48,783 nucleotides of DNA from an uncultured Streptomycetaceae bacterium. GTDB taxonomy: Bacteria; Pseudomonadota; Gammaproteobacteria; Burkholderiales; SG8-41. Location: NCBI GenBank assembly GCA_964564295.1, contig CAZMBS010000003.1:1-48783 (forward strand), in the 5' to 3' direction. Numbering within the stretch: the stretch's first letter is position 1; every line of letters starts with the position of its first letter. The notes under the pieces are model-generated. The model worked only from the letters and a program-made list of their open reading frames with translations, did no database searches and was not told where the DNA came from. Made by a program: the position numbers and the translations under genes. Shown here piece after piece: positions 6,946 through 42,969 of the stretch.

Positions 6946-7923
6946 TCACTCGGGCTTGATGCCCGCTTCCTTCACGACGCGCGCCCATTTCGCGGTTTCG
7001 GACGCGATGTATTTTCCGAGCTGGTCGGGCGCCATTTCCAGCGCTTCCGCGCCTTCGGACGTGAAGCGCTTGCGGGTTTCGGCGGTCTTGAGTATCGCGG
7101 AGATTTCGGTGTTGAGTTTGCGCACGATGTCGGGCGCGGTTCCGGCCGGCGCGAGTATGCCCCACCAATTGTTCGCCTCGTACCCCTTGAGCCCGCCCTC
7201 GGCGATCGTCGGCACGTCCGGCAGCACGGTCACGCGTTTCGCGCCGCCGGTGCCGAGCACCTTCAGTTTGCCGGAGCCGAAATGCGGCATCAGCTGGATC
7301 AGCGACCCGGTGCAGAACTGGGTCTGGCCGGAGATCACGTCGATCATCGCGGGCCCGCCGCCCTTGAACGGCACATGCACCACGTTGATGCCGGCCATGA
7401 TGCGAAAGAGTTCGCTGCCGAGATGCTGGAACGACCCGATGCCCGCCGAGGCGTAATTGAGCTGTCCGGGTTTCGATTTCGCGAAGGCGATGAATTCCTT
7501 CACGGTTTTCGCGGGCAGCGACGGGTGCACCGCGAGTGCGTTGGGTCCGGTGCCGAGCATCGCGACCGGCGCGAACGACTTCGCCGGATCGTACGGCAGA
7601 CGCGAGTACATCGAGGTGTTGAACGCATAGGCGACCGAGATGATCAGCAGCGTGTGGCCGTCCGGCGGCGACTTTGCCGCGAGTTCGGTGCCGATCACGC
7701 CGCCCGCGCCGCCGCGGTTGTCGACGACGAACTGCCTGCCGAGGCGCTCGGTCAGTTGCTGCGCGATCATGCGGCCGACGATATCGTTGCTGCCGCCCGG
7801 CGGGAACGGAATGATCACGCGCACGGATTTTTGCGGGTAGTCCTGCGCGGACGCGGGAAGCGCGGCGGCCGATCCGCCGAGCATCGCGGCCAGTACGGCG
7901 ATGGTTGTTCTGCATGGCATCAT
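6946..7923 (-). CDS. Bug/TctC-family periplasmic substrate-binding protein
   Basis: 325-aa ORF with signal peptide MMPCRTTIAVLAAMLGGSAAALPASAQ. Bug blocks VRVIIPFPPGGSND, VVDNRGGAGGVIG, PDGHTLLI, PGQLNYASAGIGSFQHLGSE and HVPFKGGGPA. Confidence 0.92.
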   Translation of the reverse strand: MMPCRTTIAVLAAMLGGSAAALPASAQDYPQKSVRVIIPFPPGGSNDIVGRMIAQQLTERLGRQFVVDNRGGAGGVIGTELAAKSPPDGHTLLIISVAYAFNTSMYSRLPYDPAKSFAPVAMLGTGPNALAVHPSLPAKTVKEFIAFAKSKPGQLNYASAGIGSFQHLGSELFRIMAGINVVHVPFKGGGPAMIDVISGQTQFCTGSLIQLMPHFGSGKLKVLGTGGAKRVTVLPDVPTIAEGGLKGYEANNWWGILAPAGTAPDIVRKLNTEISAILKTAETRKRFTSEGAEALEMAPDQLGKYIASETAKWARVVKEAGIKPE

Positions 7924-29241: not shown

Positions 29242-30216
29242 ATGTCGAAGTTGACCTGTGTTGCCGCACTGCTCGGCGCCGTGCTGGCGCTTCCCGCCGC
29301 GGCCCAGTGGAAGCCGGACAAGCCCGTCGAAATCGTCGTGCCGACGACGCCCGGCGGTGCAATCGACACGATCGCGCGGCTGATCCAGAGAATCGGGCAG
29401 GAAGCAAAGCTCGTCGAGACGCCGCTGGTGGTGGTCAACAAGCCCGGCGGCGGCCAGAGCGTCGCGATGAGTTATCTCGACCAGAAACCGGGCGACGCGC
29501 ACACCATCCTCGTCTCCACGATGAGCCTGATGACGACCCACATGCAGGGCCGGACCAAGGTGAACTACACCGACTACACGCCGATCGCGAATCTGTTCGG
29601 CGAGCCGATGACCATGGTCGTGCGGCCGGAATCGCCGCTGCGGAGTGCACGCGACGTCCAGGAGAAATTGAAGGCGGATCCGCAGTCGCTCGCGATCGGC
29701 GTGGGCATCGCGGTGGGCGGCACCAACCATCTCGCGGCGGCCCTCGTGCTGCGCGCGATGGGCGTGGATCCGCGCAAGGCCAAAACCGTCGTGTTCCAGG
29801 CGAACGCGGAAGCGATGACCGCGATCATGGGCGGGCACGTGGACCTCGCGCCGATGTCCGCGGCCACCGCGATCAACGCCGCGCGGCAGGGGCGTCTGCG
29901 CATACTCGGCGTGAGTTCCGCGCGCCGCGGCGACGGTCCGCTCGCGGAAGTTCCGACCTGGAAGGAGCAGGGCTACGACGTGGTGTTCACCAACGTGCGG
30001 TTCGTGCTCGGTCCCAAGGGCCTCAGTCCCGCCCAGATCGCGTACTGGGACGGCGTCTTCGAAAAGATGGTGCGCACCGACGAGTGGAAGGGCCAGGTCG
30101 CGAAAAATCTCTGGGAAATGGATTTCGCCGGCCACAAGGGGACCGTGCAGCGCCTCGGCACGCTTTACACGCAGCTTCGCGGCGCGATGGTGGACTCCGG
30201 GCTCATCAAGGAATAA
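29242..30216 (+). CDS. TctC/Bug-superfamily periplasmic binding protein, divergent subtype
   Basis: 324-aa ORF with an AAGGAGGA Shine-Dalgarno and signal peptide MSKLTCVAALLGAVLALPAAAQ. Blocks VVNKPGGGQSVAM, GGHVDLAPM, VPTWKEQGYD and DEWKGQV are shared with 11000-12001. Confidence 0.88.
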   Translation: MSKLTCVAALLGAVLALPAAAQWKPDKPVEIVVPTTPGGAIDTIARLIQRIGQEAKLVETPLVVVNKPGGGQSVAMSYLDQKPGDAHTILVSTMSLMTTHMQGRTKVNYTDYTPIANLFGEPMTMVVRPESPLRSARDVQEKLKADPQSLAIGVGIAVGGTNHLAAALVLRAMGVDPRKAKTVVFQANAEAMTAIMGGHVDLAPMSAATAINAARQGRLRILGVSSARRGDGPLAEVPTWKEQGYDVVFTNVRFVLGPKGLSPAQIAYWDGVFEKMVRTDEWKGQVAKNLWEMDFAGHKGTVQRLGTLYTQLRGAMVDSGLIKE

Positions 30217-30296
30217 CCCGGACCGATGCGCGCGCATACCGGGAGGGCGACGGCGGGCGGGGGGTACGCGGCGATCCGCATTGCACGGAGTTCCCG

Positions 30297-31484
30297 TTGA
30301 ATCCGATTCTTTCCGAGGAATCCCGCGCCTGGCAGCAGAAGGCCCGTGAATTTGCGCGCGAGGAACTCCTGCCGATTTCGGTTGAACGCGACCGCATTCC
30401 CGATGCGTACGGCGCGTTCGACCCCGAAGTCATCCGCCGCGGCTCGAAGCTCGGCTTCCGCACCGCCGTGCTGCCGAAGGCGCTCGGCGGCCATGCGATT
30501 TCCACCGTCACGCAGGCGCTCGTCATCACCGAGCTTGCGAAGGGCGACAGCGCGATTTGCAAGACCTTCACGCAGTGCTGGAAGTGGAGCCACATGATGT
30601 CGGTCGTCTGCTCGCCGGAGCAGCGGGAACGGTTCCTGAAGCCGTTCGTCGAGGACGACCTCTATCTGCTGGGCCACGCCGGCACCGAGCCCAATGCCGG
30701 TTCCGATCACCGGATGATTCCCGAAGAGGATCCGCGCGCGGGCTGGAAGCTGCGCGCCGAGCCGCACGGCGACGAATGGATACTGAATGGCGAAAAGTGC
30801 TTCATCGCGAACGGCAGCGTCGCGAAACTCTTTTTTGTGACCGCGCGCACGAATCCGGAGGTCGACCAGGCCCACGGCACGACGGAATTTCTCGTGACGC
30901 TCGACACGCCGGGTCTGCGCATGGGCAAGGTCTACAACAAGAGCGGCTGGCGCTTCTACCAGAATGGCGAACTGGTGTTCGACGACGCGCGCGTGCCGGA
31001 CGCAAACCGCGTGGGTCCCGTGAACGGCGGATTTCATCTGCGCACCGGCACGTCGCAGCCCTTCGGCGATCTCGAACTGTCCGCCAACGCGCTCGGCATC
31101 TGCGACGCGGCGCTGGAACTCGCGATGCAGCACGTCGCCGCGCGCTGGCCGCAGCACCGCTATTTCAGGGACAACCAGTCCGTGCAGTTGAAGCTGTCGC
31201 GCATGCACATGCTGACCGAAGCGCTGCGCGCGTTCGTGCTGCGCGTCGCCGGCGAGACCGACGCGGGCGCGAAGGGGCATTCCACCACCAACATCCTGCT
31301 CATGAATTTCGCCACCGACACCGTGCAGGAAGTCACCGCGCTCAATTTCGACCTGCACGCAGGCGCGGGTGCGGCCGAAATGCCGCCGCGGGTCGATAAA
31401 CTCGCCCGCGACGCGGTCATCTGGACCCACCTCGCGGGCGACTCGGTGCAGCGCATGAAGGGCGTGCGCCGCATCGTGGGTTGA
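30297..31484 (+). CDS. acyl-CoA dehydrogenase-family protein (type A paralog)
   Basis: The coding part aligns from the N-terminus with 25687-26868 if it starts at TTG 30297 (LNPILSEESRAWQQKAREFA versus MHIAITDEQRAWQMKAREFA). Shared runs are KTFTQCWKWSH, GTEPNAGSDHR, LNGEKCFIANGSVAKLF and RDAVIWTHLAGDSVQRMK. Confidence 0.82.
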   Translation: MNPILSEESRAWQQKAREFAREELLPISVERDRIPDAYGAFDPEVIRRGSKLGFRTAVLPKALGGHAISTVTQALVITELAKGDSAICKTFTQCWKWSHMMSVVCSPEQRERFLKPFVEDDLYLLGHAGTEPNAGSDHRMIPEEDPRAGWKLRAEPHGDEWILNGEKCFIANGSVAKLFFVTARTNPEVDQAHGTTEFLVTLDTPGLRMGKVYNKSGWRFYQNGELVFDDARVPDANRVGPVNGGFHLRTGTSQPFGDLELSANALGICDAALELAMQHVAARWPQHRYFRDNQSVQLKLSRMHMLTEALRAFVLRVAGETDAGAKGHSTTNILLMNFATDTVQEVTALNFDLHAGAGAAEMPPRVDKLARDAVIWTHLAGDSVQRMKGVRRIVG

Positions 31485-31490
31485 TGTCGC

Positions 31491-32327: not shown

Positions 32328-33305
32328 CTATTCGGCGGTGATGCCCGCCGCCGCGGCGATCCTGCGGTACTTTTCGATGTCCGCCTTCTGCCGCGCACTC
32401 AACGCTTCCGGCGTGGATCCCACGATGTCGGTGGCCGCGTCGAGCTGCCGCTGACGGTAGTCCGGCGACTGGATGATGCTCACGAGTTCCGCGTGCAGCT
32501 TGTCGAGGATGTCCTTCGGCGTTTTCGCCGCCACCCAGATCGCGTACCACTGCACGATGTCGAAGCCCGGTGCGCCGGCTTCCGCGATGGTCGGCACTTC
32601 GGGCAGCGCGCCGGACCGCTGCGCGGAGGTTACCGCGAGTCCGCGCAGCCGGCCCGCCTTGACGTGCGGAATGGACACGGTCGGCGCGGTCAAAGCGATC
32701 GGAACGTGGCCGCCGATGACGTCGATCAGCGCCGGCGCGGCGCCCTTGTAGGGAACGTGCACCATGTCGATGCGAAACGTCGTCTTCAGCAGTTCGCCGG
32801 CGAAATGCTGCGGCGTGCCGGTGCCGATCGACCCGTAACTCAACGCACCCGGCTTCGCGCGTGCGAGCGCAACGAGTTCCTTCACGGATTTAGCCGGCAG
32901 CGACGGATGCGCGAGCAGGATCGGCGGCGTCGTGCCGACGAGCGTCACCGGTTGCAGATCGCGCACCGGGTCGTAGGGCATTTTCCTGAACAGCACGACG
33001 TTCATGGACACTTCGCTCGACGCACTGAGCAGCAGCGTGTAGCCGTCGGCCGGGCTCCGTACGACGAACTCGGTGCCGATCATGGCGCTTCCGCCCGGGC
33101 GGCTTTCGACGACGACCGGCTGGTTCCAGCGTTCCGACAGGCGTGCCGCGATCGGTCGCGCGGTGTAATCGGAGCCGCCCCCTGCCGGGTAGGTGATCAC
33201 CATGCGGATCGCCTTCGACGGATAGACCTGTGCGAGCGCGGATACCCCAGGGTATACCGATGCCAGAATCAGGACCAGCGGCAGGGATTTCATCATCGGG
33301 GTCTC
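32328..33305 (-). CDS. Bug/TctC-family periplasmic substrate-binding protein
   Basis: The real start is ATGATG at 33305 (MMKSLPLVLILASVYPGVSALAQ). Bug blocks AIRMVITYPAGGGSD, VVESRPGGSAMIG, ADGYTLLL, PGALSYGSIGTGTPQHFAGE and HVPYKGAAPA. It lies 23 bp downstream of the FAAL-fusion gene. Confidence 0.9.
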   Translation of the reverse strand, partial: ETPMMKSLPLVLILASVYPGVSALAQVYPSKAIRMVITYPAGGGSDYTARPIAARLSERWNQPVVVESRPGGSAMIGTEFVVRSPADGYTLLLSASSEVSMNVVLFRKMPYDPVRDLQPVTLVGTTPPILLAHPSLPAKSVKELVALARAKPGALSYGSIGTGTPQHFAGELLKTTFRIDMVHVPYKGAAPALIDVIGGHVPIALTAPTVSIPHVKAGRLRGLAVTSAQRSGALPEVPTIAEAGAPGFDIVQWYAIWVAAKTPKDILDKLHAELVSIIQSPDYRQRQLDAATDIVGSTPEALSARQKADIEKYRRIAAAAGITAE

Positions 33306-33328: not shown

Positions 33329-36178
33329 CTAAGCCGGGTGTTTCGGCGGCAGGGCCGTTTCTTCGCTGAGGTCCGGCTCGCCGCAGAGCCGCAGCATCTC
33401 GGCGCGCGCGCTGTCGCGCAGCCGGATCGCCGCGTCCCAGCCGGTGCCCGCGGGTTCGATCGGCGCACTGAAGGTGATGCTCACGCGGCTGCGGCGAAAG
33501 AGCCAGGTGCCGTCGCGCAGCGCGGAGCGCGTGCCGCGCAGCGTGACCGGCACGACGGGCACGCCGGCCTGTGCGGCGACGACGAACGCGCCCATGCGGA
33601 ACGGCAGCAGTCCCGGCATCCGGCGGAACGTGCCTTCGGGAAACACGATCAGCGATTTGCCGGCGCGCGCGGCTTCGACGAAGCGACCGGTGTCCTCCAC
33701 GCCGCGCTGCGCATCGAGCCGGTCCACGAACACGGCGCCGATGCGCCGCAGGAATATGCGCGGAACCCAGTGGCCCAGCAGTTCGCTTTTCGCGACGAAG
33801 GATTTCGGCTGCGGCAGCGCCGCCGCAAGCAGGATGCCGTCGAGGTAACTCGCGTGGTTCACGACCATGACGCAGGTGCGCGCGTCCGGCACGTTTTCGA
33901 TGCCGCGCACGTCGAGGCGCATCCCGGTCAACGCGGCGAACGCGCGCGCCATGCCGCCGCTCAGCCGCCATGCCCGATCGGTTCGCGCGAGCGGCGCGCA
34001 CGCGAGCCACACGAGCGTGCCCATCGTGCCGAGCAGCAACAGCGCGTACGCGCCGTACAGCCGGTCGCCGATCGCGCGCAGCACGCGCCGCAACTGCGGC
34101 AGCATCGCCGCGAACGTGAGCCGCGCGACCTGCAGCCACACGGCGCGCCGCGCGGTCGTGCCGCCGCGCTCGTACACCTCGCGGCTCGCGGAGCGCCGAA
34201 TCTTGCCGCTCGAAGTCTTGAGTACCGTGCCGGGCGGCGCGAGCATCACGTCGTCGGCGGCGATCCCGAGCAGGGAAACAGACAACTCGTTGATTTTATT
34301 TATTATTTCCTCTCGGCGTTGCGGATCTGCTTCGCGCGTTTCCGCGAGCACGATAATTTTCTCGGTGCCGGCACGCGCGTCGCTGCTGCCGAATACGGCG
34401 ACGCACCCCTTGCGTACGCCGTCCACGCTGCCGACGGCTTCCTCGAGATCGTACGGGTGTATGTTGCGTCCCGCGCGGATGATGGTGTCCTTGATGCGGC
34501 CGGTGATGTAGACGTCACCCGCGGCGATGTAACCGTAGTCGTCGGTGTCCATCCATTCGCCGTGCAGCAGCTTGCGTGTCGCCTCGGGGTTGCGGTAGTA
34601 ACCGCTCGTCACCGACGGCCCGCTGAACTGGATGTGACCCTCGCGCCGCTCGGGAAGCTCCTGTCCGGCATCGTCGACGACGCGCACCTGGTGCCCCGGT
34701 ATCGGATGGCCGCACGCGACGTGGGTGAGCGCATCGGCGTGCTCCGGCGGCACGGGGTCGGCGCGCCCGCCGCGCATGAACGCATTCTTGTCCACGCGGT
34801 CGAGCACCGGGCCGCGCAGCGGCGGCGGAAACGCGACACCCAGCGTCGCTTCCGCGAGCCCGTATACCGGTGCCATCGCGCCGGGCCGGAAACCCCAGCG
34901 CGCGAAGCGTTTTGTGAACGCATCCATCGTGTCCGGCGACACCGGCTCTGCGCCGTTGAACGCGAAGCGCCATGAGGAAAGATCGATGCCCGCCATGTCC
35001 GCGTCCTGTATCCGGCGCACGCAAAGCTCGTAGCAGAAGTTGGGGCCGCCGGTGAGCGTGCCGCCGTGCCGGTGGATCGTGCGCAGCCACCGCTCCGGCC
35101 GGGACAGAAACGTGAGCGGCGACATGACCGGGTACTTGAAGCCGTACAGCAGGCTGCCCATCCACGCGCCGATGAGCCCCATGTCGTGATAAAGCGGCAG
35201 CCAGCTCACGAACACGTCGGCCGGCGTGACCTGGAGCGCGCGGCCCATCGCGCGGATGTTCGTCAGCAGATTCGCATGCGTGAGCACGACGCCTTTCGGA
35301 TTGCCGGTGCTGCCCGAGGTGTACTGCAGCATGGCGATGTCCTGCGGCTTGCCGCGATGGATCGACGCCACGCCGCCCGGACGCAGCAATTCATCCGGCG
35401 TCATCACGTGCTGCAGCGTTTCCACGCGCGGCTTCAGCAGCACCGCCAGCGGTTTCGCCTGCGGCACCGTGATGAGCATTCCCGCCAGCGCATTGGACAG
35501 TATCGTCGCGTGGCGCCGCAGGTGATCCTCGATCTGCGACGGGCGCGCCGGCGGGTAGATCGGCACCGGTATGCCGCCCGCGAGCAGTATTCCGAAGAAG
35601 CTGAAGAAATACTCGACGCTCGTCGGCAGCATGATCGCCACCGCGCGTCCCGGCTCGAGCCCGCGTTCGATCAGTCCCGCGGCGATCGCGCGCGCGGCGG
35701 CATCGAGTTCGCCGTAGGTCACGGTGCGCTCGGCGCCTGCCTCGTCCTGCAGCACGATATGCGGGCGCTGCGGGTGTTTCGCCACGTGCCACGCGAGCAC
35801 TTCCGGCAGCGTCGTCGCGTCCTCGGGTGTCTGCGCTTCGGTGGCGAGCGCCGAGACGCGCTCGATCGTCGCGACGTGACCGGCGCGCGCGGGGCCGGCC
35901 GCGAGTATCGCGCGCAACAGATCGCGCGGGGTTTCGGCGCTCGACATCACGGATTCCGGCAGGCCGGCGCCGAAGCGTTTCTCGATACGCACGAAGAGTT
36001 CGACGCGCCCGAGGCTGTCGAAACCGTAGTCCTGCTCGAGCCGGCTGTCGAGCGACGCGGGCAGTCCGGCGCGGTTGGGATGCAGTTCGAGCGCGAGCCC
36101 GCGGACAAGTGCGATCAGCGCATCGGCGCTGACTTCGAAGGTACCGTTGTGCTGCGGCGTCGCGGCGGCGGTTTCCAC
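33329..36178 (-). CDS. tri-domain fusion: acyl carrier protein - fatty acyl-AMP ligase (FAAL-type AMP-binding) - membrane segment - lysophospholipid/glycerolipid acyltransferase (PlsC/LPLAT)
   Basis: ACP phosphopantetheine site: LEQDYGFDSLGRVELF. AMP-binding cores: LQYTSGSTGNPKGV, YGLAEAT, GRIKDTIIRAGRNIHPYDLE and KTSSGKIRR, with the FAAL-like IPVPIYPPARP. Hydrophobic stretch: LYGAYALLLLGTMGTLVWLACAPLA. LPLAT blocks: VVNHASYLDG (HX4D), FVAKSEL, VFPEGTF and VPVVPV. The start is uncertain. I use GTG 36178 because the track ATG at 36331 lies inside the upstream lipoprotein gene. Confidence 0.85.
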   Translation of the reverse strand: METAAATPQHNGTFEVSADALIALVRGLALELHPNRAGLPASLDSRLEQDYGFDSLGRVELFVRIEKRFGAGLPESVMSSAETPRDLLRAILAAGPARAGHVATIERVSALATEAQTPEDATTLPEVLAWHVAKHPQRPHIVLQDEAGAERTVTYGELDAAARAIAAGLIERGLEPGRAVAIMLPTSVEYFFSFFGILLAGGIPVPIYPPARPSQIEDHLRRHATILSNALAGMLITVPQAKPLAVLLKPRVETLQHVMTPDELLRPGGVASIHRGKPQDIAMLQYTSGSTGNPKGVVLTHANLLTNIRAMGRALQVTPADVFVSWLPLYHDMGLIGAWMGSLLYGFKYPVMSPLTFLSRPERWLRTIHRHGGTLTGGPNFCYELCVRRIQDADMAGIDLSSWRFAFNGAEPVSPDTMDAFTKRFARWGFRPGAMAPVYGLAEATLGVAFPPPLRGPVLDRVDKNAFMRGGRADPVPPEHADALTHVACGHPIPGHQVRVVDDAGQELPERREGHIQFSGPSVTSGYYRNPEATRKLLHGEWMDTDDYGYIAAGDVYITGRIKDTIIRAGRNIHPYDLEEAVGSVDGVRKGCVAVFGSSDARAGTEKIIVLAETREADPQRREEIINKINELSVSLLGIAADDVMLAPPGTVLKTSSGKIRRSASREVYERGGTTARRAVWLQVARLTFAAMLPQLRRVLRAIGDRLYGAYALLLLGTMGTLVWLACAPLARTDRAWRLSGGMARAFAALTGMRLDVRGIENVPDARTCVMVVNHASYLDGILLAAALPQPKSFVAKSELLGHWVPRIFLRRIGAVFVDRLDAQRGVEDTGRFVEAARAGKSLIVFPEGTFRRMPGLLPFRMGAFVVAAQAGVPVVPVTLRGTRSALRDGTWLFRRSRVSITFSAPIEPAGTGWDAAIRLRDSARAEMLRLCGEPDLSEETALPPKHPA
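34283..34310 (-). repeat. AT-rich element C (A/T tract + perfect IHF-type core AATCAACGAGTTG) embedded in coding sequence
   Basis: The minus strand reads GGAAATAATAAATAAAATCAACGAGTTG and encodes EEIINKINEL of the FAAL domain. It shares an exact 15-mer with element A and matches element E at 22/30 positions. Confidence 0.6.
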
Positions 36179-36221
36179 GGAGGGTCCCGTGCCTGGGATA
36201 GTGCGGAGATGGTAGCACAGC

Positions 36222-36263
36222 GCATCGCGTATTCCGGTCGACGGCAACCGGAACGCGCGATGC
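36222..36263. repeat. strong interrupted hairpin in the lipoprotein / FAAL-fusion intercistronic gap
   Basis: GCATCGCG pairs with CGCGATGC (8 bp) and TTCCGGT pairs with ACCGGAA (7 bp). They are separated by a 2x2 internal loop and enclose an 8-nt apical loop. No U-tract follows on either strand. Confidence 0.6.
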
Positions 36264-36282
36264 GTGCCGTGCGCGGGGCCGG

Positions 36283-36828
36283 TCAGCTGCCGATGTGCAC
36301 CTGATACTGCGCGCCGTTTGAAAACGCGCACGTGCCGGCACCCATGTTCGGCGCGTTCATCTGATACTCGCAGCGCGCGAACGTGCCGCGCGGGCCGTGG
36401 GCGCTCGCGAGGCCGCGCCGCTCGTCGTTGGCGACGCGCGTTGCTTCACCTACCAGCGTTTCGCCCTGGTAGATGAACGAGAAGCGTCCCTTGCCATTCA
36501 TGTAGTTCGTGACCGATCCGGTGAGCACGCCGGTCTGGTTGGCGAGATCGTTCGCCGGATAGAGCCGCACCGGCAACGTGGCCGGGAATGCCGGGCGCGT
36601 TGCGGCCGTCTCGCCCGGTGCCGGGTGCGGCGGCAGCGTGACGATTGCGCCGGCGACCGGATACGTGGCGATCGAGCCGTCGGGATTGACCGGTACGACG
36701 TAACAACCCGTAAGCAGTCCGGCGGCAAGACCCATGGCGGCGATGATTCGCGGCGATCCCTGTGCGCGTTGGAAGGGTGTTCTTTCCGGCGAAGTGCGTA
36801 CGCAATCTGGTGTTCGGGCAGCAGTCAT
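36283..36828 (-). CDS. hypothetical lipoprotein
   Basis: GGAGGA Shine-Dalgarno 6 nt before ATG 36828. Lipobox LLTGC follows the hydrophobic stretch RIIAAMGLAAG. The mature part of about 140 aa is Gly/Thr/Asn-rich (VTNYMNGKGRFSFIYQGETLVGEATRV...CEYQMNAPNMGAGTCAFSNGAQYQVHIGS). I do not recognise a family. Confidence 0.65.
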   Translation of the reverse strand: MTAARTPDCVRTSPERTPFQRAQGSPRIIAAMGLAAGLLTGCYVVPVNPDGSIATYPVAGAIVTLPPHPAPGETAATRPAFPATLPVRLYPANDLANQTGVLTGSVTNYMNGKGRFSFIYQGETLVGEATRVANDERRGLASAHGPRGTFARCEYQMNAPNMGAGTCAFSNGAQYQVHIGS

Positions 36829-36922
36829 GAAAGATCCTCCAAGTTGATCGCGGAAGCGCCGTATCGTCCGACTGGACCTCGGCACCGCGACGGGTCGGAT
36901 GATCGGGGGTCCGGAGTTGCGA

Positions 36923-36955
36923 ATGGATTACCGATGGGTCACGGATGGGTCACCG
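36923..36955 (-). promoter_or_regulatory. three direct repeats phased at exactly 11 bp; candidate winged-helix/SARP operator upstream of the lipoprotein operon
   Basis: The plus strand reads ATGGATTACCG | ATGGGTCACGG | ATGGGTCACCG (36923, 36934, 36945). An inverted copy, GGATGGGATG, lies on the other strand at 36959-36968. The repeats sit 95-125 bp upstream of ATG 36828. Confidence 0.5.
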
Positions 36956-36968
36956 CAGCATCCCATCC

Positions 36969-36998
36969 GGAAAAAGAAAGCAAAATCAATGAGTTGGG
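36969..36998 (+). repeat. AT-rich element E (A-tract + perfect IHF-type core AATCAATGAGTTG)
   Basis: The sequence is GGAAAAAGAAAGCAAAATCAATGAGTTGGG, a 22/30 match to element C. The core at 36984-36996 fits WATCAANNNNTTR exactly. It lies between the 11-bp repeats and the palindrome TTTCCGGAAA (37003-37012). Confidence 0.55.
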
Positions 36999-37013
36999 AT
37001 CGTTTCCGGAAAA

Positions 37014-40000
37014 TCAGCCCGGCTTCACAACCTGATCGTACAGCGCGCGGGTCTGCGGTCCCGGCTCGACGGAGAGGTATGCGGCAAGCGCGCGCCGGCA
37101 CCGGTCGAACGTTTCGGCGGCGTCGGCGCGCCGGCCCGCACGGTCGTATGCCGTCATCAGATGCCGGTACAGCGACTCAATCGTGGGATCCGATTCCAGC
37201 GCGCGCTCGAGGTAGTCGATCGCCTGCCCTGCGTCGCCGCATGCCAGGCAGCGCTGCGCGAGGTCTCCAGCGGTTCTCGCGAATCGATGGCGTTCGCGGT
37301 CCCGCAGCGGGAGCGTCCATGCTGCGTCGGAATCATTGGCGAGGAACGCACCGGTGTAAATGGCAAGCAGTCGCTCCCCGAGTTCTCGAAGCTGTGCGAG
37401 GTCGGGTTCCTCGGCGGCCGGTCGCATCAGGGGGCCGAGCCGGCCGACGATCTGTCCGAAAGCCCAGGTGTCCACCCAGACGTAACGTCCGTCGAGCGAG
37501 AGTTTTCCCTCCGACAGTTGCAGAACGCGGTCCTCGCCGAACAACCGGCGCAGCCGGTGCAGCGTCGTCGTGAATGAACGGTGCGCGGAGTCTCCGTCAA
37601 TGCGGGGCCACAGCGCTTCGGTGATGCGATCCTCGGGAACCTCGCGCCCGCCGTGGGCAACCAGAACCTTCAGCAGATCCAGCGGTCGCCGTTGCGCCTT
37701 GCCGGTGAACGACACTGCCGTTCCGTGCCGCAGCAGCCGGAACGAGCCGAAAGTCTGCACGCGGAATGGCCACGGCCATTCGACCAGGGCTGCGGTTGCG
37801 GCGTCCAGCGCGAGCCGTCGTTCCTGTACGATGCGGGACGCGAATTCACGCGCCACGTCGTGCTCCAGCGCGATGCTGCAGAGCCGCGCAAGCGGGCCGG
37901 GTTGCCACAGCAGGCAACTCGTGAAATGCCGCGGCTTCGCGATGTCGAGCGCGTATCGCAGCGCGCGCAATCCGGAACGCGGACGGCGTGCCCGATCGAG
38001 GCTCACGTAGGCGTAGTTCAGGAGTCCGATGAACTGGATCAGCGGGCTGTGGATGGGGCGTGCGAGGTCGTAGACCCGCTGAAAATGCGCGAAAGCCCGG
38101 CGCTCCTCGCCGCTTTCGTAGAGCACCAGCGCGGATGCCACGTGGCACAGCACTTCGTAGGTCGGACAGCCGACCTCGATCGCCATCGTGAGCGCGAGTT
38201 TCTGCTGTTGAAACGCGCGCGCGCTGTCGCGTCGCAACAGGGCTGCCCACGCCGAAAACAGATGGAAGAGGCAGAGGTCGAAACGCGCCGGGCTGCCCTG
38301 CAGCGCGGTGAACTGTTGCAGCAGCGACTCTGCGGTGTCCGGATCCCCGGACATGAGCGCGCCCCCGGCTCCATTGGCGAGCAATTGGTAGGACAGCACC
38401 TGAACGCCCTCACCGCGCTCGATGTCGAGGCCGGCCCGCACTGCCGCGAGACAGGAGTCGCGGTCATTGGTCAGCATGAAATAGCTTGCTTCGGCGAGAT
38501 AGAGCGTCGTTCGCGCGAAAGGCGTTACGTCATGTTCCGCGGCCACCCGTCGCATGCCTTCGATCACGGCCCAGGTTTTCGGGAAATGACCTTCCCACAT
38601 CATGCTCAGGGCGACGCGCCAGTCCACGAGCATGCGCAGGTTGGGGTCGTCCTGCGCGCGAGAGGCGCGGTAACCGCGTTCGACCCATCGTGCAAGGTCC
38701 GGATGGTGGGGCTGACGCACGCTCATCGACGTCAGCAGGCTGCACGAGAGCCGCGCGTCGAGTTGCGCCGACAGCAGATCCGGATACCGCGACAGCAGAT
38801 CCTCCATGACCGCGATCCACTGGTCGAGCAGCGAAAAATCGTCGACTTCATACAGGATCGCGTCCATGGCGCCCGAACAGGAAAACAGCAATCCCAGCGG
38901 ATCGGGCGTGCCCTGCTCGCGGAACAAACGATGGGCCCGTTCCTGCAGGGCGCGGCTTGCGCGGGGAGACGCCTGCATGCGGGCGACAGCGAGCCAGTAG
39001 AGCGTCCACGGGTCGCGCTCCTGGATTTCACGCGGCAGTGCCTCCACCCACTGCGCGAGCGTTTCGCCGCGCCCGGAATCCAGCATCGCGCGCGCCTGTC
39101 CGTTGATGAGGTTTTGCAGCCTTGGCCAGTCCCCCGCCGCGCGGGCGAGCAGGGCCGCCTCGGTGACCCATCCCTCGTTCGCCATCAGTTCCGCGGACTG
39201 TCGCTGCAGGGCGCTGCGCCGCTCGCGTGGCAGTGATGCGACCCGCGACACCAGGAAGTCGCGGAACAGCGGGTGGTATTCGTATACCGGTTGTGGCGTC
39301 GCGCGTTTGAGCGACACGAAGTAGTTGCTGCGATGCAGCCGCGCGAGGCGTTCGCCCGCGTTGGCGTGCCCGGACACCGCGCAGGCCATGTCCGCCGTCA
39401 TCTGTGGCAGGTACGCGGTGGACAACAGGATGTCGCGGTCTTCCGCGTCGGTTTTCTCGAGAATTTCGCCTGCGAGGTAGTCGAAGACGAGTTGTGGCGT
39501 CGTCAGATCCGGCGGCGCGCCGGGCGCGTGGCCCTCGGGCGTGTGTTCGAGCATGAGTACGAGTCCCGCCGCCCAGCCCTGAGTCCTGTCGTACAGCGCG
39601 GCAAGCGCCTTCGGCGCGAGCCGGCGGCTGCGCCGCGCGGCAATCGCGTCAGACTCGTCGCGCGAGAGCCTCAGTTCACTCCAGCCGATCGACACGAGTT
39701 GCCGGTTCGCCCGCAAGCGTGCCATCGAGACCGGCGGGTCGCCGCGGCTGATCAGGATAACGCAGCCGCCGGACGGAACCTCGGTCAGCGCGCACATCAT
39801 GACTTCATGCAGTCGCGATTGCGGCGGCAAATCGTGGTAACCATCAAACACGATCGCGAATGACGCGCCGAGATGCTTGTACATCGCCTGAAAATATCGC
39901 CGCGCGAATGCCGGAAGCGTTGCGTGCTGTTGGGGCGTCAACTGCGGCAGCCGCGCCGCGGTTCGACGGCCTGCGGCGTTCGCAGCGAGTCCGAGGTGGT

Positions 40001-40241
40001 AGAAAAATGACGCCGGATCGGCGTCGCCTTCGTCGATCTGGTACCAGAGGGAACGCGCTTTGCACTGCTCCAGGAAACTGGCCGCCAGCGTGGTTTTTCC
40101 CGAGCCCGGCGGCCCCGTGATCCATACGGCGGGACTTTTTCTGGCCTGGTCAAGCAACGCGAACAAGCGTGCGCGCGGCAGCACGCCGGCAAAGCTCGGC
40201 CGCGTAGTCTTGGCGATCGTCGGGCGGGATTTGGCCATCAC
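37014..40241 (-). CDS. large transcriptional regulator: MalT-type STAND P-loop NTPase + helical repeat (TPR-like) region + C-terminal OmpR/SARP-type winged helix + BTAD
   Basis: 1075-aa ORF. The N-terminus is MalT-like: RARLFALLDQARKSPAVWITGPPGSGKTT (Walker A), FAIVFDGYHDL (Walker B-like) and TQGWAAGLVL. The C-terminus has a winged helix (VQTFGSFRLLRHGTAVSFTGKAQRRPLDLLKVLVAHGGREVPEDRITEALWP) and a BTAD (LLAIYTGAFLANDSDAAW...LERALESDPTIESLYRHLMTAYDRAGRRADAAETFDRCRRALAAYLSVEPGPQTRALYDQV). Confidence 0.85.
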   Translation of the reverse strand: MMAKSRPTIAKTTRPSFAGVLPRARLFALLDQARKSPAVWITGPPGSGKTTLAASFLEQCKARSLWYQIDEGDADPASFFYHLGLAANAAGRRTAARLPQLTPQQHATLPAFARRYFQAMYKHLGASFAIVFDGYHDLPPQSRLHEVMMCALTEVPSGGCVILISRGDPPVSMARLRANRQLVSIGWSELRLSRDESDAIAARRSRRLAPKALAALYDRTQGWAAGLVLMLEHTPEGHAPGAPPDLTTPQLVFDYLAGEILEKTDAEDRDILLSTAYLPQMTADMACAVSGHANAGERLARLHRSNYFVSLKRATPQPVYEYHPLFRDFLVSRVASLPRERRSALQRQSAELMANEGWVTEAALLARAAGDWPRLQNLINGQARAMLDSGRGETLAQWVEALPREIQERDPWTLYWLAVARMQASPRASRALQERAHRLFREQGTPDPLGLLFSCSGAMDAILYEVDDFSLLDQWIAVMEDLLSRYPDLLSAQLDARLSCSLLTSMSVRQPHHPDLARWVERGYRASRAQDDPNLRMLVDWRVALSMMWEGHFPKTWAVIEGMRRVAAEHDVTPFARTTLYLAEASYFMLTNDRDSCLAAVRAGLDIERGEGVQVLSYQLLANGAGGALMSGDPDTAESLLQQFTALQGSPARFDLCLFHLFSAWAALLRRDSARAFQQQKLALTMAIEVGCPTYEVLCHVASALVLYESGEERRAFAHFQRVYDLARPIHSPLIQFIGLLNYAYVSLDRARRPRSGLRALRYALDIAKPRHFTSCLLWQPGPLARLCSIALEHDVAREFASRIVQERRLALDAATAALVEWPWPFRVQTFGSFRLLRHGTAVSFTGKAQRRPLDLLKVLVAHGGREVPEDRITEALWPRIDGDSAHRSFTTTLHRLRRLFGEDRVLQLSEGKLSLDGRYVWVDTWAFGQIVGRLGPLMRPAAEEPDLAQLRELGERLLAIYTGAFLANDSDAAWTLPLRDRERHRFARTAGDLAQRCLACGDAGQAIDYLERALESDPTIESLYRHLMTAYDRAGRRADAAETFDRCRRALAAYLSVEPGPQTRALYDQVVKPG

Positions 40242-40283
40242 TCGCGATTATGCGTGATTCCGTGCGATGTCGCAGCCGGCGCA

Positions 40284-40314
40284 ACGTATTAAAAATAATA
40301 AAAACAATACGTTA
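40284..40314. promoter_or_regulatory. palindrome ACGTATT-N15-AATACGT enclosing AT-rich element B (AACAA-TACG-TTA core)
   Basis: Perfect 7-bp arms at 40284-40290 and 40306-40312 flank the spacer AAAAATAATAAAAAC. The element shares AAATAATAAA and AAACAAT with element A. It lies in the 199-bp divergent region between the regulator and fadE. Confidence 0.5.
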
Positions 40315-40394
40315 CAGATATTTTCCGGTTTTCCGGTCGCGTGCTGCGCCGCCGGCGTCGGACGGCCGGCCCGACACAAGGCTCTTTTCCCGCC

Positions 40395-40440: not shown

Positions 40441-42969
40441 ATGACCACACTGCTCGTCATTCTTGCCGCGCTCGCGGTGCTCTGGTTCCTGGCCTACCAC
40501 CGCTTCCCGGCGATCGCCTGGACGCTGGTCATCGCCGCGGGTCTCGGCGTGCTGACGCTGTATTCCGGATGGACGGCAGCCGCGATCGCATCGTTATGGG
40601 CGGGATTCGCCGTTGCGGCGCTGATCGGCAATCCGACGCCCGTGCGACGCGCGCTCGTGAGTCTTCCGCTGCTCGCGCTGTTCCGGCGCATCCTGCCGCA
40701 GGTGTCGCAAACCGAGCAGGAAGCGCTCGACGCGGGCACGGTGTGGTGGGACGGCGAACTGTTCAGCGGCAATCCGGACTGGAACAAGCTGCTCGCGTAT
40801 CCCAAGCCGGCGCTGACGGCGGAGGAGCAGGCCTTCGTCGACGGCCCGGTGAACGAACTCTGCGAGATGGTCGACGAATGGCAGGTCGTGAACGAGTTGC
40901 ACGATCTGCCCCCGCACGTCTGGCAGTTCATCAAGGACAACGGCTTCATCGGCATGATCATTCCGAAGGAATACGGCGGCAAGGGCTTTTCGGCGCTCGC
41001 GCATTCCGAAATCGTCATGAAGCTCACGACGCATACCGGCACGGCGGCGGTTTCGGTGATGGTGCCGAACTCGCTCGGGCCGGCGGAATTGCTGCTGCAC
41101 TACGGCACGAAGGCGCAGAAGGACCATTACCTGCCGCGGCTCGCGAAGGGTCTCGAGATTCCCTGTTTCGCGCTGACCAGTCCGGAAGCGGGATCGGACG
41201 CGGGCGGCATTCCCGATTTCGGTATCGTGTGCCGCGGGGACTGGCAGGGCGAGAAGGACGTGCTGGGCATACGCCTCACGTGGGAGAAGCGCTACATCAC
41301 GCTGGGGCCGATCGCGACGCTGCTCGGTCTCGCATTCCGGCTCTACGATCCCGCTCACCTGCTCGGCGAAAAGGAAGACATCGGCATCACGCTCGGGCTG
41401 ATTCCCACGCATACGCCGGGCGTGCATATCGGGCGCCGCCACATGCCGCTGAACGGGGCGTTCATGAACGGCCCGAACTGGGGCCGGGACGTGTTCGTGC
41501 CGATGGACTACGTGATCGGCGGCGTCGATTACGTCGGGCAGGGCTGGAAGATGCTGATGAACTGCCTCGCGGCGGGACGGTCGATTTCGCTGCCCGCCAA
41601 CGGAACCGGGATGTCGAAGCTGTGCGCGCTGACGACCGGCGCCTACGGGCGCGTGCGGCAGCAGTTCCGGCTCTCGATCGGGCGCTTCGAGGGCGTCGAA
41701 GAAGCGATGGCGCGCATCGGCGGCAACCTCTACATGATGGACGCGGCGCGCAAGATGACGGCCGGCGCGATCGACCTCGGCGAGAAACCGTCCGTCGTGT
41801 CGGCGATCGTCAAGTACCATCTGACGGAGCGCGGCCGCAAGGTCGTCATCGATGCGATGGACGTGCATGGCGGAAAGGGCATCTGCATGGGCCCGAACAA
41901 TTACCTCGCGCACGCCTATCAGCAGACGCCGATCGCGATCACCGTCGAGGGCGCCAACATCCTCACGCGCTCGATGATCATCTTCGGTCAGGGCGCGATA
42001 CGCGGCCATCCGTTCGTGCTGAAGGAAATCACGGCCACGCAGGAGAAGGATCACGGCAAGGCGCTGCGCGACTTCGACGCCGCATTTTTCGGGCACGTGG
42101 CGTTCGTGGTCGCGAACAAGGCGCGCGCGGCGTGGATGGGGATTACCGGCGCGCGATTCGTGTCGACCCCGGGCGATGCCGACACGCGGCGCTACTATCG
42201 GCAGCTCACACGGCTTTCAAGTGCTTTCGCCTTTGCTTCCGACGTGGCGATGTTCGTGCTCGGCGGCTCGCTGAAGCGGCGCGAGCGCATCTCCGCGCGG
42301 CTCGGCGACATCCTGTCCCAGTTGTATCTCGCGTCCGCGACGCTGAAGCGCTACGAGGATGACGGCCGGCCGAGGGAGGATCTGCCGCTGCTGCACTGGT
42401 CGATGCAGGATGCGTTGCACCAGATCGAGGAGGCGTTCTACGGGTTCTTCGACAACCTGCCGAATGCGTTCATCGCGTGGTCGGTGAAGCGCATCGTATT
42501 TCCGTGGGGCCGCGTATTCCGGCCGCCGCCGGACGCGTTGGGGAGCCGGGTCGTCAACCTGCTCATGGTGCCGGGGCCGTCGCGCGACCGGCTGACCGCG
42601 GGCGTGTTCATCTCGAAAAACGCGGACGATCCGATCGCGACCATCGAAGCGGCGCTGCGCGCGGTCATCGCGGCGGAACCCATCGGCGCGAAAATTCGCG
42701 ATGCCCGGGAGCAGGGGAAAATCACCGCGCGATTCGCGGACCAGATCGTCGACGAGGCGGTCGCGAAGGGCGTGATCACGCCGGACGAGAAGGCGGCGAT
42801 GGAGCGTGCGAAGGCGTTGCGGCGCAAGGTCATCATGGTCGATGATTTTCCGAAGGACTTCGGCAGGACCGAAATCCACCAGACCACGGAGCCCGTCACG
42901 TTCGAGGCGTTGCGCGGGCGCACCGCGTGGCCCGAGCAGGCGAGCCACCAGCCGAACCCGTCGACGTGA
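40441..42969 (+). CDS. fadE: large membrane-anchored acyl-CoA dehydrogenase, FadE type
   Basis: 842-aa ORF. The N-terminus has hydrophobic helices (MTTLLVILAALAVLWFLAY..., AWTLVIAAGLGVLTLY). It is followed by an ACAD core (CFALTSPEAGSDAG, GANILTRSMIIFGQGAIRGHP) and the long C-terminal extension typical of E. coli-type FadE. Confidence 0.92.
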   Translation: MTTLLVILAALAVLWFLAYHRFPAIAWTLVIAAGLGVLTLYSGWTAAAIASLWAGFAVAALIGNPTPVRRALVSLPLLALFRRILPQVSQTEQEALDAGTVWWDGELFSGNPDWNKLLAYPKPALTAEEQAFVDGPVNELCEMVDEWQVVNELHDLPPHVWQFIKDNGFIGMIIPKEYGGKGFSALAHSEIVMKLTTHTGTAAVSVMVPNSLGPAELLLHYGTKAQKDHYLPRLAKGLEIPCFALTSPEAGSDAGGIPDFGIVCRGDWQGEKDVLGIRLTWEKRYITLGPIATLLGLAFRLYDPAHLLGEKEDIGITLGLIPTHTPGVHIGRRHMPLNGAFMNGPNWGRDVFVPMDYVIGGVDYVGQGWKMLMNCLAAGRSISLPANGTGMSKLCALTTGAYGRVRQQFRLSIGRFEGVEEAMARIGGNLYMMDAARKMTAGAIDLGEKPSVVSAIVKYHLTERGRKVVIDAMDVHGGKGICMGPNNYLAHAYQQTPIAITVEGANILTRSMIIFGQGAIRGHPFVLKEITATQEKDHGKALRDFDAAFFGHVAFVVANKARAAWMGITGARFVSTPGDADTRRYYRQLTRLSSAFAFASDVAMFVLGGSLKRRERISARLGDILSQLYLASATLKRYEDDGRPREDLPLLHWSMQDALHQIEEAFYGFFDNLPNAFIAWSVKRIVFPWGRVFRPPPDALGSRVVNLLMVPGPSRDRLTAGVFISKNADDPIATIEAALRAVIAAEPIGAKIRDAREQGKITARFADQIVDEAVAKGVITPDEKAAMERAKALRRKVIMVDDFPKDFGRTEIHQTTEPVTFEALRGRTAWPEQASHQPNPST

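Follow-up and report, generated by a model that had tools for sequence, protein, structure and literature searches.

A candidate SARP-type operator at a lipoprotein gene and a separable ACP-FAAL-acyltransferase fusion gene beside a fad cluster

Three co-directional genes and the loci used for comparison

We examined positions 33,329-40,241 of a 48,783-nt stretch of contig CAZMBS010000003.1 (assembly GCA_964564295.1; the whole stretch is called the window), where three minus-strand open reading frames (ORFs) encode, in 5' to 3' order, a 1075-aa regulator (37014-40241), a 181-aa lipoprotein that we call lipoA (36283-36828), and a 949-aa fusion enzyme (33329-36178) in which an acyl carrier protein (ACP) domain, a FAAL (fatty-acyl-AMP ligase) domain, a membrane helix and a PlsC-type acyltransferase follow one another on a single polypeptide. 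A first-pass annotation, made from the letters alone, had drawn the same three ORFs, which we confirmed, and had read them together with their control region as one undescribed regulated module. The main new results of our analysis are a clean definition of the operator in front of lipoA and the splitting of that presumed module into two units, on the strength of 40 related loci.

Comparisons were made against 36 genome loci around homologues of the fusion and ten further metagenome loci, referred to below by number (L039 is the same as L001, and L045/46 are treated as one context). Gene neighbourhoods were counted by tblastn, with the lipoprotein count taken over the 30 loci that had enough upstream DNA and the regulator count over 18. 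The exact sequence of the window's fusion protein had no database record and homologues were used in its place. An Rfam scan of the whole window returned no RNA family, and hence no known riboswitch or leader in the intergenic regions.

A conserved repeat array in front of the lipoprotein gene

The region between the regulator and lipoA carries, on the minus strand, three tandem 11-bp direct repeats, GTGACCCATCC GTGACCCATCG GTAATCCATTC (36921-36953; family consensus GTAAsyCATCs), which are followed by a degenerate fourth repeat, GCAACTCCGGA (36920-36910; G.AA.C.ccC. across the aligned sites), and, after a 5-nt spacer, by a -10-like hexamer, GATCAT (36904-36899; CAnnAT across the aligned sites), with no -35 box. 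Alignment of the four loci that carry the regulator revealed that the three repeats are conserved in the regulator-lipoprotein intergenic regions, and a weight matrix built from the 12 repeats of these loci, when scanned over 403 kb of loci outside the training set, returned 15 triple-repeat matches, each on the gene strand, with 0 from the opposite strand and 0 from 20 shuffles. Within the 48.8-kb window the matrix matched a single operator, at 36953. The layout proved identical at 17 of 17 aligned sites, with three strong units, the degenerate fourth, 5 nt and then CAnnAT. The one-turn phased repeats that the first-pass annotation had related to SARP/OmpR-type binding are both present here and conserved.

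We infer that 36899-36920 forms the core promoter of the lipoprotein gene, with the fourth repeat covering its putative -35 position; this assignment, like that of the fusion promoter below, is based on conservation alone. In published SARP sites the direct repeats share one face of the helix and extend over a poor -35 element (PMC11301090), and the geometry seen here matches them, marking the array as a predicted SARP-type operator.

Among the relatives, the operator precedes a homologous lipoprotein gene in L001, L003, L010, L011, L012, L015, L030, L032, L041, L042, L043 and L045, with 11 distinct loci other than the window counted for the 17 aligned sites. Further sites stand before a Peptidase_C92-like lipoprotein that an Lgt paralogue follows, before a conserved acidic protein of 72 aa, and before an operon in which small lipoproteins lead up to a glycerophosphodiesterase (GDPD). 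Because the same operator stands before these other lipoprotein genes, the extra Lgt and the GDPD operon, the regulator appears to control an envelope lipoprotein set.

Some of these sites have features of their own. The acidic protein of ~72 aa (EFVFNDEEEALCNEDFVLSHQREMPAVEEFLQEM), which has no Pfam match and no copy in the window, is often the first gene behind the operator and stands ahead of the lipoprotein (L010 740-958, L012 295-513, L022 637-855, L033 6165-6386 and L043 7775-7969). Positions 7138-9830 of L039 hold an operator copy, the Peptidase_C92-like lipoprotein gene and then a second Lgt (prolipoprotein diacylglyceryl transferase), just after which lie another operator, then a small ORF and then the homologue of the lipoprotein.

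The other elements that the first-pass annotation had listed for the control region are all present in the window, namely a 10-bp palindrome, TTTCCGGAAA (37003-37012, minus strand), an IHF-consensus match (36984-36996, minus strand) and an inverted repeat unit, CGGATGGG/CCCATCCG, but they are not conserved. The IHF consensus occurs in 0 of 16 other operator regions, in which the inverted unit and the palindrome are likewise absent or unconserved, and all three were dropped from the mechanism. Of the features of the control region and the hairpin described next, only the direct repeats and the hairpin are kept in relatives. Separately, the 8-mer TTTTCCGG occurs 10 times in the window against 1.2 copies expected, a count reached by 0 of 100 shuffles, with copies at 36967-36974, 37006-37013, 40321-40328 and 40329-40336 flanking the regulator, two in each intergenic region, and six at other sites. 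It was not obviously conserved in the relatives inspected; it may serve some other factor as a binding site, or may have been left behind when a cassette inserted.

A hairpin after the lipoprotein gene and a promoter-like motif before the fusion gene

The stable intercistronic hairpin of the first-pass annotation held up on folding, with a GC-rich structure after the lipoA stop codon (36222-36263, minus strand) reaching -56.5 kcal/mol (z = -3.9) and 0 of 200 shuffles being equally stable. All nine relatives that pair the lipoprotein with the fusion have a strong hairpin at the same place, with differing sequence, and a T6-7 stretch comes after it in L012, L013 and L015. As an intrinsic terminator, then, the window hairpin is strong and conserved in structure but lacks the U-tract that those three loci possess. 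A generic promoter and terminator scan of the window picked out neither the lipoA nor the fusion promoter, and called no terminator at the hairpin, where there is no U-tract. The hairpin probably terminates the lipoprotein transcript or stabilises its 3' end.

Past the hairpin, ~30 nt upstream of the fusion start codon, lies an extended -10-like motif, TGTGCTACCATC (TGn + TACCAT; 36208-36219, minus strand). Its family form, TGTGCTAACATC (TGTGCTA[A/C]CATC), recurs in 25 of 25 loci at ~30-40 nt ahead of the fusion's start codon, regardless of which genes stand upstream, including L002, whose entire fadE-fusion spacer measures ~95 nt. The motif reads as an extended -10 element (TGn + TAACAT) that would be the fusion's own promoter, and a scan of the window and relatives found no operator directly in front of the fusion gene, which we take to be a predicted transcription unit of its own. 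An operator that stands only before the lipoprotein gene, a hairpin after its stop codon and a motif kept at the fusion in every one of the 25 loci together speak against the single regulated operon that had first been proposed.

Two separable units in a variable slot

Divergent from the regulator lies a fad cluster, whose first gene encodes a FadE-type acyl-CoA dehydrogenase (40441-42969, plus strand; Pfam ACDH_C 1e-115) and which continues through an enoyl-CoA hydratase, a short-chain dehydrogenase (SDR) and an acyl-CoA synthetase to 46476. The back-to-back position with this cluster, already noted at first pass, is conserved in relatives, where FadE is divergent to the fusion or the regulator in L002, L007, L008, L011, L020, L023, L025, L032, L034, L038, L041, L042 and L045.

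Evaluating what stands in the fadE-fusion slot revealed a changing content. The gene order of L045/46 is exactly that of the window, and in six loci (L002, L007, L020, L023, L025 and L034) fadE and the fusion are immediate divergent neighbours. The next gene upstream of the fusion is the lipoprotein at 9 of 30 loci, leaving 21 of 30 where it is not, and the regulator is upstream at 3 of 18. Conversely, L041 and L042, both on megabase-scale contigs, carry FadE, the regulator, the operator, the lipoprotein and more lipoproteins, with no fusion within ~7 kb downstream, and Modicisalibacter ilicicola DSM 19980 has the fusion next to a LysR gene with neither regulator nor lipoprotein. Because each is found without the other in relatives, we conclude that the regulator-lipoprotein pair and the fusion are two separable units in a variable slot beside the fad cluster, and the obligate co-occurrence that a single module would imply is contradicted by these counts.

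Another occupant of the slot is a cassette that encodes an uncharacterised 505-aa protein, BcrAD_BadFG and DUF2229 (L008, L009, L015, L037, L038 and L043), sometimes joined by GDPD, a fatty-acid desaturase, PF10520 Lipid_desat or a fatty-acid hydroxylase. From its domain content the cassette resembles a gene set of the ether-lipid or plasmalogen type, carried by Burkholderiales that are presumably aerobic. Its fullest form was seen in L037 (1350-9733), where the 505-aa protein and a double BcrAD_BadFG plus DUF2229 stand with desaturase, hydroxylase and PF10520 genes; L009 adds a desaturase and a hydroxylase.

A MalT-type ATPase joined to a C-terminal SARP domain

The regulator (minus strand) consists of a MalT-type STAND NTPase (residues 18-411), a helical sensor arm and a SARP domain (residues ~825-1072). 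Residues 18-411 match the NCBIfam MalT model NF003420 (1.8e-53), the N-terminus aligns with the MalT structure 8BOB (2.5e-32) and with AAA_16 (5e-08), and the Walker A motif reads GPPGSGKT; with WHD_MalT carried by its relatives, this is the nucleotide-binding oligomerisation module of MalT/STAND proteins. At the other end, the C-terminal 254 aa align over their whole length with the SARP domains of EmbR (2FEZ, residues 19-256, 2e-10) and AfsR (8HVR, residues 47-283, 2e-06), giving the order that defines SARPs, an OmpR-type winged helix and then a BTAD. Of the domains that the first-pass annotation had expected in the proteins of this locus, searches returned PP-binding, AMP-binding, Acyltransferase, AAA_16 and BTAD (the last at 2e-21, 77.3 bits against a cut-off of 22.1), and only Trans_reg_C stayed weak and under its cut-off (3e-04, 21.1 against 26.2 bits), with the SARP domain being aligned through EmbR and AfsR.

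Common to this protein and SARPs of the AfsR, EmbR and ActII-ORF4 type is the winged helix with BTAD, and its predicted operator has one-turn direct repeats that would overlap the -35 position as theirs do. It departs from them in having a betaproteobacterial host and putative targets that are lipoprotein genes instead of antibiotic clusters. Large SARPs such as AfsR have an N-terminal SARP domain that is followed by the ATPase and TPR (PMC11301090), whereas the regulator has its MalT-type ATPase N-terminal and its SARP domain C-terminal (residues 825-1072). With MalT and LAL-type STAND regulators it shares the N-terminal NTPase. The C-terminus of MalT is a LuxR-type helix-turn-helix; in the regulator, for which a search for a LuxR/GerE helix-turn-helix gave no match, the SARP output takes its place. 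By domain matching, the regulator puts two known modules together in an arrangement that has been described neither for AfsR-type SARPs nor for MalT, and its architecture recurs in more than 1600 homologues.

A narrow family of predicted beta-barrel lipoproteins

The lipoA gene (minus strand) has a GGAGGA ribosome-binding site, and its product consists of a lipobox (LLTG-C42), a disordered linker and a conserved C-terminal domain of ~100 aa. Lipidation is predicted from the lipobox, in which the cysteine is invariant and L-[SAT]-[GA]-C is found in nearly all of 36 aligned homologues, and across the same 36 sequences the C-terminal ~100 residues have 54 invariant positions, two cysteines among them. 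The protein had been described as belonging to no recognisable family, and indeed neither Pfam nor NCBIfam gave a match even at E=10 and none of its 858 homologues is named. Moreover, a profile search of 1.84 billion representatives turned up only 275 clusters (50% identity) and nothing to tie the protein to a named family, which is why we consider the lipoA family narrow and lineage-specific.

An AlphaFold2 model predicts an 8-stranded beta-barrel, with 10-residue blocks over residues 81-180 averaging predicted local distance difference test scores of 77-94, most near 90. Foldseek searches of the PDB with this model gave weak, generic matches to 8-stranded barrels (best E = 2e-03), and a fatty-acid-binding role for the barrel, speculative with matches of this kind, was not adopted. 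In L027 a 16-codon lipoA remnant (7774-7821), 87% identical to residues 144-159, stands directly before the fusion promoter motif, which indicates that the lipoA gene was lost from that genome.

A fusion enzyme with a built-in carrier

Pfam, NCBIfam and PDB matches, together with intact motifs, bear out the ACP-FAAL-membrane segment-acyltransferase arrangement proposed for the fusion enzyme, with each of the three domains exceeding its Pfam cut-off. All coordinates here are on the minus strand. The ACP (35906-36055; Pfam PP-binding, residues 42-91, 9e-08) keeps its GFDS55L motif, with Ser55 as the predicted phosphopantetheine site. The FAAL domain (34163-35794; Pfam AMP-binding PF00501, residues 129-528, 3.4e-75) has the core ANL motifs YTSGSTGNPKG at residue 286, GRIKD at 560 and SGK at 657-659 (K659). 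The sole strong hydrophobic helix of the protein (33986-34054; residues 709-731) comes next, and the PlsC-type acyltransferase (33539-33919; PF01553, residues 754-880, 2.6e-29) carries the H775-x4-D780 and FPEGT846 blocks.

The adenylation part is closer to characterised FAALs than to acyl-CoA ligases. Its top NCBIfam model is the FAAL PRK09192 (2e-129), and the 18 PDB entries ranked highest (among them 3PBK, 3KXW, FadD32, FadD23 and FadD28) are either FAALs or stand-alone adenylation domains closely related to them, with E. coli FAAL 3PBK in the lead at 9e-91 and a CoA ligase first appearing at 3e-31. The alignment with E. coli FAAL is gap-free over residues 456-503 and matches to CoA ligases break at ~450-490, a pattern that points indirectly to the FAAL-specific insertion. 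The fused PP-binding domain with GFDS55L would fit the holo-ACP loading and CoA rejection expected of FAALs.

The acyltransferase domain scores 102.1 bits to PF01553 against a cut-off of 23, with its HX4D block reading H775ASYLD780, and matches the PlsC structure 5KYM (2e-22). When it was searched alone, the PlsC model TIGR00530 ranked first (97.7 bits), followed by Aas-type models and, lower, by OlsA models. All three domains are shared by more than 120 clusters at 66-79% identity, nearly all from uncultured Betaproteobacteria/Burkholderiales; the cultured carrier is Modicisalibacter ilicicola DSM 19980, whose protein is 50% identical with the same three domains. At the ORF start (36140-36178 and the equivalent positions of 24 loci), the first ~25 nt, (G/T)TGGAAAC.TCCGTCGC, are conserved as nucleotides, with no clear ribosome-binding site upstream and, in several relatives, a strong GGAGG-like sequence 20-30 nt further in. 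The annotated GTG may differ from the true start codon or from a leader element.

Relation to Aas, ElbD and surveyed FAAL fusions

The nearest characterised counterpart in function would be E. coli Aas, which works with the flippase LplT. In both, an adenylate-forming activator and an HX4D acyltransferase of the PlsC family share one polypeptide, ACP rather than CoA carries the acyl group, and lysophospholipids are re-acylated at the inner membrane, the last two points being predicted for the fusion. Aas has its acyltransferase at the N-terminus (residues 1-203) and its synthetase at the C-terminus (residues 204-719), uses free holo-ACP and has no predicted transmembrane helix (PMC11416262), which agrees with the contrast in domain order and carrier drawn at first pass. 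The fusion by contrast runs ACP-FAAL-helix-acyltransferase, with the carrier built in and a FAAL-type activator that scores 432 bits to the FAAL model versus 159-203 bits to models of the LplT-Aas fusion type. With this reversed order and fused ACP it falls outside the Aas family proper, whose model PRK08043 gave 46.5 bits against a cut-off of 886, over the acyltransferase domain only.

A second comparison is ElbD of Myxococcus xanthus, which combines adenylation, ACP and AGPAT-like domains, is needed for ether lipids, and was purified as a soluble protein with no acyltransferase activity detected (PMC9131029). ElbD likewise acts on glycerolipids with these three domain types, yet it begins with a FAR-like reductase and runs Re-A-ACP-AT (an order taken from publications), whereas the window's fusion has no reductase or NAD-binding domain, places its ACP before the adenylation domain and contains a membrane helix. 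Both ElbD and Aas were compared through NCBIfam models and published domain maps.

Fusions of a FAAL with a lysophospholipid acyltransferase have also been noted in two surveys (Patil et al. 2021, eLife, PMC8460268; FAALPred 2026, PMC12820801), with the same domain combination as here and with function not tested there, so the label "undescribed" given at first pass no longer applies to the combination itself. The surveys report no function, N-terminal ACP, genomic context or regulation, of which the present analysis adds a proposed account. Our literature searches for a characterised ACP-FAAL-acyltransferase found the two survey mentions only and no functional study.

A two-unit interpretation and its alternatives

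With moderate confidence, we read the locus as a regulator-switched lipoprotein gene next to an independently transcribed, Aas-like and CoA-independent fusion enzyme. For the first unit, the STAND ATPase of the regulator would presumably be activated by ATP and a ligand, by analogy with MalT, and the activated protein would oligomerise, such that its SARP domain binds the four 11-bp repeats (three strong, with the weak fourth over the -35 position), recruits RNA polymerase to a -10-only promoter and turns on the beta-barrel lipoprotein. For the second unit, the fusion would be transcribed from its own extended -10-type promoter downstream of the lipoprotein hairpin; its FAAL would adenylate a free fatty acid and then load the phosphopantetheine of its own ACP at Ser55, and its membrane-anchored acyltransferase (His775/Asp780) would then transfer that acyl chain to a lyso-glycerolipid on the inner membrane's cytoplasmic side. 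The net outcome would be an Aas-like, CoA-independent re-acylation or salvage enzyme that brings its own carrier. We suggest a glycerolipid acceptor because the PlsC model ranks first, because relatives have lipid-modifying neighbours and because Aas sets a precedent. On this account the CoA-independent, carrier-tethered transfer to a membrane acceptor proposed at first pass remains the best reading of the domains.

Several points weigh against this interpretation. Since the window hairpin has no U-tract, some read-through from the lipoprotein promoter into the fusion is possible, and the TGTGCTAACATC motif could be a regulator binding site instead of a -10 element. The adjacency of lipoA and the fusion exceeds chance, and a looser functional link is possible because lipoA adjoins the fusion at 9 of 30 loci and lies directly upstream or within ~1.4 kb of it in two of four distinct lipoA- or regulator-centred contexts. 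On the enzyme side, the acyltransferase domain comes close to but stays under the curated cut-off of the PlsC model (97.7 against 102.95 bits for TIGR00530) and is far under the cut-offs of the Aas models, for which reason the acceptor could be another lysolipid such as an ether lysolipid or a lyso-ornithine lipid. Finally, all relatives apart from Modicisalibacter are uncultured metagenome-assembled genomes.

If the chemistry holds, the fusion would bring free fatty acids into membrane lipid by means of a single protein, without recourse to CoA or to the general ACP pool, would bear on how scavenged fatty acids are divided between burning (through the adjacent FadE and acyl-CoA synthetase) and membrane building, and would give a function to a class of FAAL fusions that two surveys flagged as unexplained; the cultured carrier Modicisalibacter ilicicola DSM 19980 makes this chemistry testable. 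The regulator with its four-repeat operator before lipoprotein genes would extend SARP-type activation past actinobacterial antibiotic clusters, and the two would form a compact promoter/activator pair for study. Both units are new arrangements of known domain types, and neither is a major surprise.

A broader version, which we consider rather unlikely but worth stating, would join the two units by theme. Here, the MalT-SARP hybrid would run an envelope lipoprotein set (with the extra Lgt and GDPD seen in relatives) and the fusion would be its lipid-side partner, a self-contained, CoA-independent enzyme re-acylating lysolipids that arise from lipoprotein maturation or from the remodelling of ester and ether lipids by the Ger-like and desaturase cassettes of the slot. 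E. coli Aas re-acylates the lysophosphatidylethanolamine released as Lnt matures lipoproteins (PMC11416262), and on this precedent one may speculate that a re-acylating enzyme and a lipoprotein regulon are loosely connected by theme. Were the broader version true, a new salvage route would stand in for Aas and LplT, and a SARP regulon would for the first time be defined outside the control of antibiotics.

Assigning the fusion to an aerobic ether-lipid or plasmalogen-type pathway, as an ElbD-like enzyme that supplies acyl chains for, or puts them back on, alkyl or alkenyl glycerolipids made by the Ger/PlsA-like and desaturase genes that neighbour it in relatives, is in our view improbable. BcrAD_BadFG and DUF2229, which are domain types of the ester-to-ether reductase Ger (PMC13159169), do stand upstream of the fusion in eight distinct loci (L001, L008, L009, L015, L033, L037, L038 and L043, with DUF2229 alone in L033); the desaturase and hydroxylase of L037 and L009 and the PF10520 Lipid_desat of L037 point the same way, and ElbD, which is needed for ether lipids, unites adenylation, ACP and AGPAT-like domains as well (PMC9131029). 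Yet no Ger-like cassette or desaturase gene lies within the 48.8-kb window, six loci and Modicisalibacter have the fusion without any such gene, the fusion lacks a reductase and puts its ACP ahead of the adenylation domain where ElbD runs reductase-A-ACP-AT, and the acyltransferase activity of ElbD itself was never demonstrated.

We find it distinctly doubtful that regulator, operator, lipoprotein and fusion form one regulated operon whose enzyme acylates the lipoprotein or a linked envelope acceptor. The four parts do share a strand and an order that recurs in L003, L011, L032 and L045/46, the window hairpin lacks a U-tract, and L001/L039 has an Lgt paralogue and the lipoprotein just upstream of the fusion. 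These points are opposed by the promoter-like motif that the fusion keeps with or without the lipoprotein (25/25 loci), by the missing operator directly before it, by the low counts of adjacent lipoprotein (9/30) and regulator (3/18) genes, and by the regulator-lipoprotein pairs of L041 and L042 that have no fusion in the flank examined. Topology adds to this: lipoproteins, once mature, reside in the periplasm, but ACP and FAAL depend on ATP and phosphopantetheine of the cytoplasm, the compartment towards which PlsC-type active sites are turned. Given that established topology separates the two, direct acylation of the lipoprotein by the fusion is unlikely, and the idea of the lipoprotein as acyl acceptor, raised at first pass, is one that we do not carry forward.

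A still more sceptical view, and to us a quite implausible one, is that the adjacency means nothing, with the fadE-fusion slot gathering unrelated cassettes and the gene order being synteny inherited within one lineage. It would account for a slot that is empty in six loci and elsewhere filled by the regulator with lipoA, by the Ger-like cassette, by GDPD or by Lgt with other lipoproteins, and for the 16-codon lipoA remnant that L027 retains. Nearly all of these contents, however, concern lipids or lipoproteins, which speaks for a shared theme over random cargo. This view is compatible with the two-unit interpretation and differs from it only in denying the thematic link.

Lastly, FAAL-ACP didomains typically begin lines of polyketide synthases (PKS) or of nonribosomal peptide synthetases (NRPS) (PMC8460268, PMC11837247) and an NRPS/PKS NCBIfam model matches the FAAL part (2e-120), but we find it very hard to credit that the FAAL-ACP part loads the synthesis of a secondary metabolite (a lipopeptide, a polyketide or an N-acyl amino acid) and that the acyltransferase off-loads the product, as no PKS, NRPS or condensation genes lie near the fusion in the window or in the annotated related loci, the neighbours are genes of fatty-acid and lipid metabolism, and the third domain is a membrane-anchored HX4D acyltransferase of the PlsC/AGPAT type.

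Neighbouring genes and further observations

Downstream of the fusion, a gene for a TctC/Bug periplasmic binding protein (32328-33305, minus strand; Pfam TctC 5.7e-61) starts after 23 bp, as the first-pass annotation had it. In L004, L007, L037, L043 and L045, too, a TctC/Bug gene lies a short way downstream of the fusion and reads in its direction. By tblastn the window holds ~11 TctC/Bug paralogues, and many such genes are typical of Burkholderiales with expanded tripartite tricarboxylate transporter families; with that number of paralogues the link is too weak, despite its recurrence, and we did not retain TctC/Bug as a functional partner.

At 30165-31490 long ORFs occur on both strands (421 aa on the minus strand and 280 aa on the plus strand), neither with a Pfam match, and third-position GC there (0.67) is lower than in neighbouring genes. 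On the other side of the locus, a very AT-rich patch of the regulator/fadE intergenic region contains a perfect inverted repeat, AACGTATT-N15-AATACGTT (40283-40313), that is unique in the window, and the fadE-fusion spacers of L007, L020 and L025 hold short palindromes of the AACA..TGTT type at a comparable place. This inverted repeat may be a site for a fatty-acid-responsive repressor.

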